Positions 8,119 through 9,824 of a DNA stretch of 64,000 bases are shown here, piece after piece. Location of the stretch: the NCBI GenBank assembly GCA_029245905.1, contig JAQWOJ010000024.1, forward strand, positions 6,114-70,113, in the 5' to 3' direction. The stretch is from Gammaproteobacteria bacterium. Lineage in GTDB: Bacteria > Pseudomonadota > Gammaproteobacteria > Pseudomonadales > Pseudohongiellaceae. The position numbers and the translations under genes are program-made. The first letter of the stretch is position 1. Each line of letters starts with the position of its first letter. The notes under the pieces were generated by a model that saw nothing but the letters and a program-made list of their open reading frames with translations, was not told the DNA's origin and made no database searches.

Positions 8119-8140
8119 AAAAACTAGCCATATGGCTAGT
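8119..8140 (-). terminator. Putative intrinsic terminator overlapping the stop codon of the 8136-9824 gene
   Basis: On the minus strand the sequence is ACTAGCC-ATAT-GGCTAGT (7-bp stem, 4-nt loop) followed by TTTT. On the plus strand the palindrome is ACTAGCCATATGGCTAGT at 8123-8140. Confidence 0.5.
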
Positions 8141-9824
8141 CTTCACCCCCTTGATCAACGTCCTTCCAATTCACTGCACCAAAAAACATTTCATCCCAAC
8201 TCTCATTTCCCCAATCTACATTCCGATCTGGATTCGGGTTCGATGGGTTTTGCGATGAATTATCCCAAGCCGCCACCGCGGTGATTTTAGTACCGCCGGG
8301 AACAAATTTTGGCTCCTCATAAGTGTAGCTGAGCTGCCAGTTGTAATTATATTTGGCAACATTAATCAGTTCTTCAGTCGTTCCATCTGGATAGTCCGCG
8401 AAGAAACGCATTCTCTTCCCGCGAAAATGCATATGGGGCAAATAGCTGTGAATGTGCGCATCATTCTCAATAATAATGCTTGCGGTCTGCTCAAATGCCG
8501 GATCATGGGCTGGGATCGTAGTCCAGGTGTTAGGGAAAACACACGCACACCGCCCGGACATCCGTTCCTCTGGCACTTCACCCAATGGGTAGAACCAGAC
8601 CCCAAGTTGACTGCGATCTACCGTCTCACGACCATTCGGTGTGTAGTGCATATTCAAATGGAGCGTGGAACCAGCCTTAACTAACCCACCTGTATTAGGT
8701 GGATCTAGATCAGGGGTATCACCTGGGATATAAGCCGTGATGCTCGCTTTGTCCCTATTACCGCTTCCTCCCAAAAAACGACGTCCAGATTCCCCAGGAA
8801 AATCAAGTCTATTCACTGTATGGTGAAGTACAGTCCGATCGCCAGCAATTATTTGACTGCCGCGAACCCACCTATCTTCTGGCATATCAAACTTGACCTC
8901 AACGTTTACAAACACCCCATTGCCAGTGGCAGGAACTTCTGTTGGCGGAATATCGAGTATCAAATCTGGTTCACCAAACGCCCATTTAGATTCGGGCCAC
9001 TCCAAATTTGCAAGCGGATCGTAATCTCCATCTTTTGGCGCCCCGGCTTCAACCCAGGCAATAATATTTCTAATGTCTTCGTTATCTACAAGCCGATCAT
9101 TTATGAATTCACCAATATGTCCATCGATCTGTCCTGGAGGCATACGACGCGTCAGCAAAACTTCGCGAATCATTGGCGACCAACCTTGAACCATGGTGTG
9201 ACTATCCATAGCAAAAGGCGCTACACCACCCTCGCGATGACAAGTTGCGCACTGCTCGGCTAATACAGGTGCCACATCTGATACATAAGACGGAGATTCT
9301 TTCATCGGATAAGAAATAATTGAGCCCATTGTCGCTTTAGCACTGGGCAATATTTCCTCACCAGCAAGCATTTGCCGAATCGCTTCGTCAGCCGATTCCA
9401 CCGGGCCTTTATACTCAACGGTAAACCGACGAGGATCGAAAAGCAGGACTTCTCCTACGCGTTCTATACCCAAAGACTCGGAAATTATTCGCGCATCGTC
9501 CATTAGAACTGGAATTTCGACACCGTACTCTGCAACTTCTGCCTTTACTGCCTCCCGGTTATATCGACCCATGGGGTTTATCATCATAAATTCTATGCCA
9601 GAATCTTCATACTTGAGCTTCAGCTCGCTATACGCACCCATAGCTTCGGCAACCGCATCGTTATCATTTTCCTGAACCAGAAAAGCAATCGCTTTATGAT
9701 CGTCATACCAACTCATACCATGATGGAAACCATCTTGATCCAGCAAAGAAAAATCACCAACTCGGTCGGCTGCAGCGACCATCGCAGGAATAATCATTAA
9801 TAAAGTTAGGTAATATTTAATCAT
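8136..9824 (-). CDS. Secreted fusion: thioredoxin-like module, c-type haem motif and PHM/DBH-like two-copper monooxygenase domains
   Basis: ORF 8136-9920. The preferred start is the ATG at 9824 (MIKYYLTLLMIIPAMVAAA), preceded by AAGAGGA. The N-terminal redoxin-like module has no Cys pair. It contains CATCHREGGVAPFAM (CxxCH). Copper-ligand-like motifs appear in PHM order: LHHTV, LNMHYTP, PHMHFRG, SWDEMFFG. Confidence 0.7.
   Translation of the reverse strand: MIKYYLTLLMIIPAMVAAADRVGDFSLLDQDGFHHGMSWYDDHKAIAFLVQENDNDAVAEAMGAYSELKLKYEDSGIEFMMINPMGRYNREAVKAEVAEYGVEIPVLMDDARIISESLGIERVGEVLLFDPRRFTVEYKGPVESADEAIRQMLAGEEILPSAKATMGSIISYPMKESPSYVSDVAPVLAEQCATCHREGGVAPFAMDSHTMVQGWSPMIREVLLTRRMPPGQIDGHIGEFINDRLVDNEDIRNIIAWVEAGAPKDGDYDPLANLEWPESKWAFGEPDLILDIPPTEVPATGNGVFVNVEVKFDMPEDRWVRGSQIIAGDRTVLHHTVNRLDFPGESGRRFLGGSGNRDKASITAYIPGDTPDLDPPNTGGLVKAGSTLHLNMHYTPNGRETVDRSQLGVWFYPLGEVPEERMSGRCACVFPNTWTTIPAHDPAFEQTASIIIENDAHIHSYLPHMHFRGKRMRFFADYPDGTTEELINVAKYNYNWQLSYTYEEPKFVPGGTKITAVAAWDNSSQNPSNPNPDRNVDWGNESWDEMFFGAVNWKDVDQGGED

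Follow-up and report, generated by a model that had tools for sequence, protein, structure and literature searches.

What is encoded by the minus-strand gene at 8136..9824, whose homologues number in the thousands and carry the names 'redoxin domain-containing protein', 'peroxiredoxin' or 'cytochrome c domain-containing protein'? The gene lies in a 64,000-nucleotide stretch of contig JAQWOJ010000024.1 (GenBank assembly GCA_029245905.1) from a gammaproteobacterium of the Pseudohongiellaceae, hereafter the window. The original prediction, made from the letters of this stretch and the translations of its open reading frames (ORFs), described a secreted fusion of a redox-dead thioredoxin fold, a c-type haem and a binuclear copper monooxygenase resembling peptidylglycine alpha-hydroxylating monooxygenase (PHM) and DBH. 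Judging from the sequence and structure-model comparisons given below, the C-terminal half of the protein is a distant homologue of the PHM/DBH catalytic core, not a peroxiredoxin. On balance, we lean towards the reading that the gene product works in the periplasm as a self-sufficient monooxygenase of the non-coupled two-copper type (PHM, DBH and TBM) that comes with a built-in electron donor.

The minus-strand ORF spans 8136..9920, and translation from ATG 9824 gives a complete product of 562 residues plus stop, a predicted exported protein of three domains. In this translation, each of the motifs quoted in the original prediction was found at its place, with LVQENDNDAV at residues 49-58, CATCH at 192-196, LHHTV at 333-337, LNMHYTP at 390-396, PHMHFRG at 463-469 and SWDEMFFG at 542-549. 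The whole protein contains four cysteines only, two in the haem motif (192 and 195) and two further downstream (426 and 428).

The PHM-like half consists of two predicted beta-sandwich subdomains, all elements of which are encoded on the minus strand. The N-terminal, CuH subdomain (residues ~280-415, 8580..8987) was delimited by profile and Foldseek matches and carries the putative CuH ligands H334/H335 (codons 8820-8825) and H393 (8646-8648). The C-terminal, CuM subdomain (residues ~441-555, 8160..8504), delimited by hhalign and by the PF03712 matches of relatives, carries the putative CuM ligands H464-x-H466 (8427-8435) and M546 (8187-8189). CuH and CuM subdomains of this kind are described for the non-coupled binuclear copper monooxygenases (PMC12164859), and the combined His3 and His2Met ligand set is the signature of the O2-activating non-coupled copper monooxygenases (PMC2988203).

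Searched against the PDB, a profile built from the C-terminal half matched PHM (rat; E 3.7e-8) and DBH (human; 3.1e-6) and no others, and in this alignment the HH pair falls on PHM H107/H108, H393 on H172, and the HxH pair on H242/H244. Profile-profile alignment to the rat PHM core with hhalign (94.7% probability, E 5.9e-8, 253 columns) placed all six copper ligands on those of PHM; the PHM sequence aligned here agrees with the PDB sequence over its first ~190 residues, and its last ~110 residues are provisional. M546 corresponds to PHM M314 inside a common S-D-E-M motif, and the HxHxxGK context is likewise kept. Under PHM Q170, the family consensus is also Q, the residue of the window protein at this position being N391. 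The ligand spacings are 58, 71 and 80 residues, compared with 64, 70 and 70 in PHM. The AlphaFold2 (AF2) model, built on 90 sequences, has a predicted local distance difference test score (pLDDT) of 90.6 and a predicted template modelling score (pTM) of 0.88, and its best Foldseek matches in the PDB are PHM (8dsl_A; E 5.7e-11, 299/310 columns) and DBH (4zel_B; 1.2e-10).

The putative ligands are strongly conserved. Among diverse relatives, H334 is present in 70/70 and H335 and H393 in 65/70 each, and the three CuM ligands H464, H466 and M546 are each found in all 90 sequences of the alignment denoted A4. The CuM subdomain additionally contains family-specific signatures, namely, the invariant W496-Q497 pair and the D521-N-S..N..NP motif.

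Upstream of the copper core lies a mono-haem, class-I-like cytochrome c domain (residues ~176-265, 9030..9299, minus strand), delimited by the invariant haem residues and the Pfam matches of relatives. The CATCH haem motif is encoded at 9237-9251 (-), and the putative distal ligand, M228, within an invariant R-M-P-P, at 9141-9143 (-). C192, C195, H196 and M228 are invariant in 70/70 and 90/90 diverse relatives, in full agreement with the c-type haem of the original prediction. The window protein alone matches Cytochrome_CBB3 (PF13442) at an E-value of 0.025. At E<=0.01, the relatives match PF13442 (23/70), Haem_bd (PF14376; 10/70) and Cytochrom_C (PF00034; 4/70). The planctomycete-type cytochrome c (PSCyt) Pfam models, the type suggested originally, match none of the 70 family members at this threshold, with Cytochrome_CBB3 and Haem_bd found instead. 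The region is helical in the AF2 model, with helices at 180-191, 209-225 and 248-259. As read from its sequence, the putative haem domain displays the features of a class I c-type cytochrome: CxxCH, a distal Met, a small helical domain and predicted export.

The N-terminal domain (residues ~20-175, 9300..9767, minus strand) adopts a predicted thioredoxin fold of the 2ywi/3u5r/2cvb type, as indicated by profile and Foldseek comparisons. Single-sequence searches yielded AhpC-TSA in Pfam (E 3.2e-5, under the cut-off) and 2cvb alone in the PDB (E 0.017); a profile of 70 family sequences retrieved 2ywi, 3u5r and 2cvb from the PDB at E-values from 1.2e-21 to 5e-17, and the Foldseek TM scores against thioredoxin-fold structures are 0.64-0.74. 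The redox Cys of this fold, located in an N-x-C-P motif, aligns with N55 (codon 9660-9662), which is flanked by D54 and D56, and the second family Cys, in a 'GC' motif at position 168, is Ser in the window protein (codon 9321-9323). Residues 1-191 contain no Cys at all. Thiol redox chemistry in this domain is therefore excluded, and 'redox-dead' was the correct description; the fold stood up as well, but not the assignment to the CxxC type, the ancestral arrangement being a single-Cys N-x-C-P with a distant second Cys. In diverse relatives, Cys occupies position 55 in 59/90 and position 168 in 58/90 sequences. Given the loss of the catalytic Cys, the enzyme label 'peroxiredoxin' or 'redoxin' is wrong for the Cys-less clade. 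Residues kept family-wide in this domain are F25, D29, G32, H35, D42, P105, D109 and G140.

The family is very large and occurs in marine and soil bacteria. Sources of homologues include SAR86, Pseudohongiellaceae, Halioglobus, Steroidobacter, Gilvimarinus and a Flavobacterium-labelled metagenome-assembled genome, and in a scan of a genome collection, the family was found mainly in Pseudohongiellaceae and other Gammaproteobacteria. A HMMER search with the haem and copper part retrieved 1,654 clusters at 50% identity with E<=1e-30 and 11,967 with E<=1e-3. Conservation was assessed in 150 cluster representatives (50% identity), 143 of them full-length. CxxCH, M228 and all six copper ligands are kept in 135 of these 143; ligands were lost in the other 8, and 6 of the 8 share an H-S-R pattern. 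Haem-binding residues are present in every non-fragment representative, one of which lacks the strict CxxCH spacing. The thioredoxin domain is missing in ~20 of the 150 representatives, ~70 keep both of its cysteines, and one or both are lost in the remainder. Because the haem is always kept and the thioredoxin domain is dispensable, the haem-copper pair is the obligate functional unit of the family.

Within the linker between the copper subdomains, the window protein carries a clade-specific C426-A-C428 motif (8541..8549, minus strand) that is invariant in close relatives and present in only 3/70 diverse members. In a set of 389 sequences, CxC was confined to those that have lost the thioredoxin cysteines (139/186, compared with 0/164 sequences with both cysteines). 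The carriers belong essentially to one clade and were therefore counted as a single evolutionary event; the motif may represent a relocated thiol or metal site.

Family members show both paralogy and diverse domain fusions. A single genome may carry as many as three paralogues (L009, L046 and L058 in OZ242251.1, for instance), and in some relatives, the whole three-domain module is tandemly duplicated. Fusion partners, found among P0122, P0138, P0231, P0237, P0235 and P0266, include EF-hands, peptidase M56 with CBM48, and an alpha/beta-hydrolase (esterase/PETase-like); further partners are Ig/PKD and TPR domains and, in P0266, a propeller of the pyrroloquinoline quinone (PQQ) type. These additional domains are too varied to name a substrate, and together with the paralogy, they fit a substrate-diversified catalytic family.

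We took ATG 9824 as the start of the gene because the N-termini of homologues fall within ~5 residues of it, the 32-residue extension of the ORF upstream is not conserved among homologues, and a Shine-Dalgarno sequence, AAGAGGAA (9832..9839, minus strand), lies 8-15 nt 5' of this codon, with its GAGG core 10-13 nt upstream. GAGGAGA is found at the equivalent place in orthologues. Residues 1-19, MIKYYLTLLMIIPAMVAAA (9768..9824, minus strand), followed by DR, are predicted from sequence features to form a signal peptide cleaved around VAA/AD. The leader, in line with the signal peptide of the original prediction, has Sec-like features, including K3 and a hydrophobic core at residues 6-19 (mean Kyte-Doolittle 2.4), and is variable among relatives, whereas the mature N-terminus, [AE][DE]RVGDF, is invariant. 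Covalent attachment of haem c requires export (PMC3601427).

A consensus scan identified a sigma-70-like promoter, TTGACT-17 nt-TAGAGT, at 9937..9965 (-); this is a consensus match, and a near-identical TTGACT...TAGAGT is located upstream of the orthologues in L009 and L010. A perfect palindrome over the -35 element, TTGACTCAATAGTCAA, was considered as an operator and dropped because it is unconserved in orthologues. At the other end of the gene, the palindrome CTAGCCATATGGCTAG followed by TTTTT, read by eye at 8119..8139 (-), overlaps the stop codon and might tentatively be regarded as a weak intrinsic terminator, a possibility to be set against the terminator scan, which did not flag it. These sequence signals suggest a transcription unit consisting of this gene alone. 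Among the clustered neighbours of 80 genomic loci, no conserved operon partner was found; a promoter-like site of its own and the lack of such a partner are as expected for a self-contained enzyme. The neighbour survey that the original prediction had called for brought up three recurrent neighbours but no conserved operon.

The first of these neighbours, a tentative partner by conserved neighbourhood only, is an MMPL/RND-type transporter (1485..3812, plus strand), directly followed by a gene for a DUF3237 protein (3827..4348, plus strand). This pair flanks the PHM-like gene in 17 orthologous Pseudohongiellaceae loci. In the window, three genes, encoding a Na:Ala symporter, a TauD dioxygenase and a class-I glutamine amidotransferase (4571..7936), are inserted between the pair and the PHM-like gene. 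MMPL homologues with 36-38% identity also stand directly beside distant family members, in divergent orientation, in L088 and L082/L083, and altogether, MMPL adjacency was seen in three distant clades. On the other side of the PHM-like gene lies a gene for an inositol monophosphatase, which we rejected as a partner because the association is confined to the orthologous clade and so reflects synteny, not function.

The second neighbour, denoted fam1, is a secreted 334-residue protein and also a tentative partner (48679..49683, plus strand; the ORF spans 48616..49683, with the probable true start at 48679). It has an invariant C-terminal YEYACHEGN motif and belongs to a family of at least 7,349 database proteins at E<=1e-5. 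fam1 is the commonest cross-clade neighbour of the PHM-like family, occurring within 8 kb of a member in ~18/80 loci; in 6, the two genes share a strand and lie no more than 120 bp apart. Searches of fam1 against Pfam, NCBIfam and PDB sequences gave no match. In its AF2 model (pLDDT 71.8), the C-terminal barrel weakly resembles FABP/CRBP (Foldseek E ~1e-3, TM ~0.5), and the YEYACHEGN motif itself is modelled at pLDDT <50.

The third, again tentative, partner is a secreted six-bladed NHL propeller related to PAL, encoded divergently from fam1 (47261..48382, minus strand; PF01436, E 2.7e-9). It matches the PAL lyase core 3fvz at E 2.3e-13, with TRIM-type NHL domains matched more strongly; trimming the query to the PAL-matching stretch still did not make PAL the top match, so the case for PAL-likeness is drawn from the 3fvz match and from a BLASTP comparison with human PAL (8e-17, against a provisional sequence). 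In the alignment to this provisional sequence, the protein keeps the equivalents of PAL H585, H690, R706 and D787, that is, 4/6 active-site residues, and has Leu at the positions of the catalytic Tyr654 and the Zn ligand His786. NHL propellers were found near the gene family in 7/89 loci. In Pseudohongiella (L046/L047) and SAR86 (L094/L095), the gene order is NHL (-), family paralogue (+), fam1 (+), and a paralogue also stands beside a PAL-related NHL propeller in L089. In the window, the orthologous NHL and fam1 genes are located side by side, next to malate synthase G, with no paralogue between them, 38 kb from the PHM-like gene. Taken together, the links of MMPL, fam1 and NHL to the PHM-like gene are suggestive.

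Several observations on these surroundings stand apart from the function of the PHM-like gene. Beyond the inositol monophosphatase gene, a plus-strand cluster (10934..14860) encodes a GtrA-like membrane protein, a DprE1-like FAD oxidase, a DprE2-like short-chain dehydrogenase/reductase (NF053786, E 2.6e-53, under the cut-off) and a UbiA-family prenyltransferase with a HAD domain. The cluster resembles a sugar-epimerisation pathway of the decaprenyl-phospho-arabinose type, here in a gammaproteobacterium, and is syntenic with, and divergently transcribed from, the PHM-like gene in orthologues. In L092, a 451-residue family member (805..2160; hmmsearch E 6e-70) consists of the haem and PHM-like domains without the thioredoxin domain and adjoins a split thioredoxin-like gene, in a cluster of NHL, YEYACHEGN, NHL and malate synthase genes; this arrangement is a natural 'unfused' form of the modules. 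The split thioredoxin-like gene, present in SAR86 and related loci (L094 154..1302 and L092 1..720), has an in-frame TGA at its redox motif, T-W-A-S-W-[TGA]-G-C-R. The break is identical in L094 and L092, and the frame runs ~210 residues past the TGA, making the product, on sequence grounds, a candidate selenocysteine-containing thioredoxin-fold protein.

How would the favoured two-copper monooxygenase work? The Sec system would export the apoprotein, haem would be bound covalently through C192/C195, its axial ligands being H196 and M228, and copper would be bound at both ligand sets. The haem c domain could then accept single electrons from the periplasmic respiratory cytochrome c pool, and these would pass from haem c to CuH (H334, H335, H393) and on to CuM (H464, H466, M546), where O2 would be activated and a C-H bond of the bound substrate hydroxylated. 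In such an enzyme, the tethered haem would stand in for ascorbate, the reductant of the animal enzymes; that the haem c fusion is obligate argues for a donor other than ascorbate. The Cys-less thioredoxin-fold domain would be a structural or docking module, with no thiol redox centre. MMPL adjacency and the FABP-like barrel of a neighbour hint weakly at a hydrophobic, lipid-like small-molecule substrate. The original interpretation holds at the level of identity. The domain assignments, the aligned and conserved ligands and the obligate joining of haem and copper domains come directly from the comparisons; how the metals are loaded, which way electrons flow, and what reaction is catalysed on which substrate are inferences, as are the role of the haem as electron donor, docking by the N-terminal domain and a copper-copper distance of ~11 Angstrom.

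Several observations weigh against this reading. With the window protein alone as the query, Pfam returned PF03712 (Cu2_monoox_C) at an E-value of 0.22 (11.5 bits, against a cut-off of 23) and no match to PF01082 (Cu2_monooxygen), the NCBIfam search yielded nothing useful, and a profile of the C-terminal copper subdomain by itself found no sequence match in the PDB, which is why M546 was placed via hhalign. The protein has neither the disulfides nor the substrate-binding residues of PHM and might therefore catalyse a different reaction. The neighbour links are partial (fam1 in ~22% of loci, NHL in ~8%), and these raw frequencies come from loci that share ancestry. Finally, a fused cytochrome c can serve equally as an electron exit. 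Single-sequence searches alone would have led to a wrong rejection of the copper core. The lack of a significant match to the copper-monooxygenase profiles, named in the original prediction as a refuting outcome, does formally hold for the window protein by itself; it does not hold at the family level, with 45/70 relatives matching PF03712 at E<=0.01 (best 1.1e-6), 3/70 matching PF01082, and one relative (P0235) scoring 31.6 bits for PF03712, above the cut-off of 23. Short His motifs are common, and the E-value of just 0.22 might be taken to mean that the ligand motifs are fortuitous and that the C-terminal half is an unrelated beta-rich domain. We find such a coincidence hardly credible: profile, profile-profile and structure comparisons all pick PHM and DBH, and the ligands are the most conserved residues across >1600 50%-clusters (E<=1e-30). 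A loose version of the ligand pattern occurs in 1/41 long reading frames of the window, namely, this gene, and in 4/5000 shuffles of the protein. The case against chance is carried mainly by family conservation together with the profile and structure matches.

If the copper core is accepted, the direction of electron flow is the next question, and the computed results would fit either direction. Fused cytochrome c domains are commonly the electron exits of periplasmic dehydrogenases, and the protein might be a periplasmic oxidase or dehydrogenase in which a substrate is oxidised at copper and the electrons leave via haem c to the respiratory chain. A PQQ-dehydrogenase-cytochrome c fusion in a related cluster (L094 8811-10712) and the PQQ-type propeller carried by P0266 point the same way. 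We consider this reversed flow unlikely: we know of no dehydrogenase with the PHM/DBH fold, and the His3 plus His2Met set, the O2-activating signature (PMC2988203), is conserved as a whole. Non-oxygenase roles, in which the protein buffers or delivers periplasmic copper or its peroxiredoxin-like, haem and copper assembly scavenges peroxide or superoxide, would account for the names peroxiredoxin and redoxin given to the family in databases, for the Cys pair kept in the thioredoxin domain by most relatives and for the Cu,Zn superoxide dismutase gene near one relative (L087). Sco-type copper chaperones, moreover, have a thioredoxin fold. Such roles seem to us less probable again, since the thioredoxin domain of the window protein lacks Cys, ~20/150 representatives lack this domain altogether while the haem and both copper sites are always kept, and the paralogue expansion and the fusions to hydrolase, carbohydrate-binding module (CBM) and Ig domains suit enzymes better than chaperones. 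With all six PHM copper ligands aligned, a paralogue standing beside a PAL-related propeller in L046/L047, L094/L095 and L089, and the window NHL protein matching the PAL core and keeping four of its active-site residues, the protein might even be a true bacterial PHM that hydroxylates the C-terminal glycine of peptides or N-acylglycines, the PAL-like propeller then finishing the amidation. This is very improbable in our view. PHM R240, N316 and Y318, which we take to hold the carboxylate and backbone of the peptidyl-glycine, align with L462, F548 and A550, in variable, hydrophobic family columns (L/T/H, F/I/Y and A/V/F/Y, respectively). As these peptide-binding residues are absent, the protein is not a peptide-amidating enzyme; furthermore, the NHL protein has neither a Tyr654 nor a His786 equivalent and is closer to TRIM-type NHL domains, and its gene is 38 kb from the gene studied here.

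The haem-driven monooxygenase thus remains the reading that we prefer. The core of the finding is a bacterial family of very large size that has all of the ligands and whose copper core is always fused to haem c. Should the haem be the reductant, this would answer how PHM-type enzymes work without ascorbate, provide a self-contained model, easier to work with, for electron transfer between the coppers, a matter of long debate, and suggest that abundant ocean bacteria transform organic matter by an unrecognised route that depends on O2 and copper. A more far-reaching proposal, which we offer as speculation that will probably not hold, is that the family is an unrecognised class of bacterial oxygenases, haem c-driven, ascorbate-independent and wired to the respiratory chain, that is abundant in marine heterotrophs, SAR86 and Pseudohongiellaceae among them. 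Together with the PAL-related NHL propeller, the FABP-like YEYACHEGN protein and MMPL, it would form a periplasmic pathway that hydroxylates and then cleaves hydrophobic amide- or lipid-like molecules, a bacterial equivalent of the animal PHM and PAL machinery and perhaps its evolutionary origin.

In textbooks, the non-coupled two-copper monooxygenases are enzymes of eukaryotes, where they produce noradrenaline and amidated peptide hormones, and a 2020 review of metalloproteomes lists PHM and DBM as eukaryotic cuproproteins only (PMC7435645). A full-text literature search, with subscription-only papers lying outside it, found no paper on the bacterial family or its haem fusion, in line with the original statement that the bacterial members are essentially uncharacterised. 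Bacterial homologues are not new in themselves because databases already flag PF03712 on a few members; new, as far as known, is that the fusion to haem is obligate, that the family is so large, that the thioredoxin domain has degenerated and that the gene has the neighbours described here.

Compared with PHM, DBH and TBM, the copper type II, ascorbate-dependent monooxygenases (PF01082 and PF03712), the window protein shares the two beta-sandwich subdomains, the CuH His-His...His and CuM His-x-His...Met ligands at aligned positions and with similar spacing, the S-D-E-M and HxHxxGK contexts and an extracytoplasmic location, here predicted. The overall identity to PHM/DBH is ~16%. The differences are equally clear. 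The window protein is bacterial and predicted to be periplasmic, whereas the known enzymes belong to the eukaryotic secretory pathway; it has a tethered haem c domain where animal PHM, DBH and TBM rely on soluble ascorbate; it lacks DOMON, the PAL domain and the PHM disulfides, with C426 and C428 as the only cysteines of the copper half; and the family-specific D-N-S-x-x-N-P-x-N-P-x-P insertion and the invariant W-Q have no PHM counterpart. The N-terminal domain has the same fold and the same C-terminal extension as 2ywi (Geobacillus), 3u5r (Sinorhizobium SMc02350) and 2cvb (Thermus), function-unassigned proteins of what is presumably the CDD group PRX_like1. The N-x-C-P and G-C cysteines of that type are common to most relatives of the window protein; unlike 2ywi, 3u5r and 2cvb, however, the domain forms part of a larger protein with haem and copper domains, and both of its cysteines are gone in the clade of the window protein. 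Two further systems offer mechanistic analogies. In the haem c-fused copper nitrite reductases of Ralstonia pickettii and Pseudoalteromonas haloplanktis, the copper domain is a cupredoxin fold, so that the parallel is one of mechanism only. The cytochrome of cellobiose dehydrogenase (CDH) reduces the copper of lytic polysaccharide monooxygenase (LPMO), and because the LPMO fold differs from that of PHM, this too is analogy and not homology. In both the haem c-fused nitrite reductases and the CDH-LPMO pair, as in the design proposed for the window protein, a one-electron haem carrier is set beside a mononuclear copper site through which electrons enter an enzyme that activates O2 or an N-oxide.

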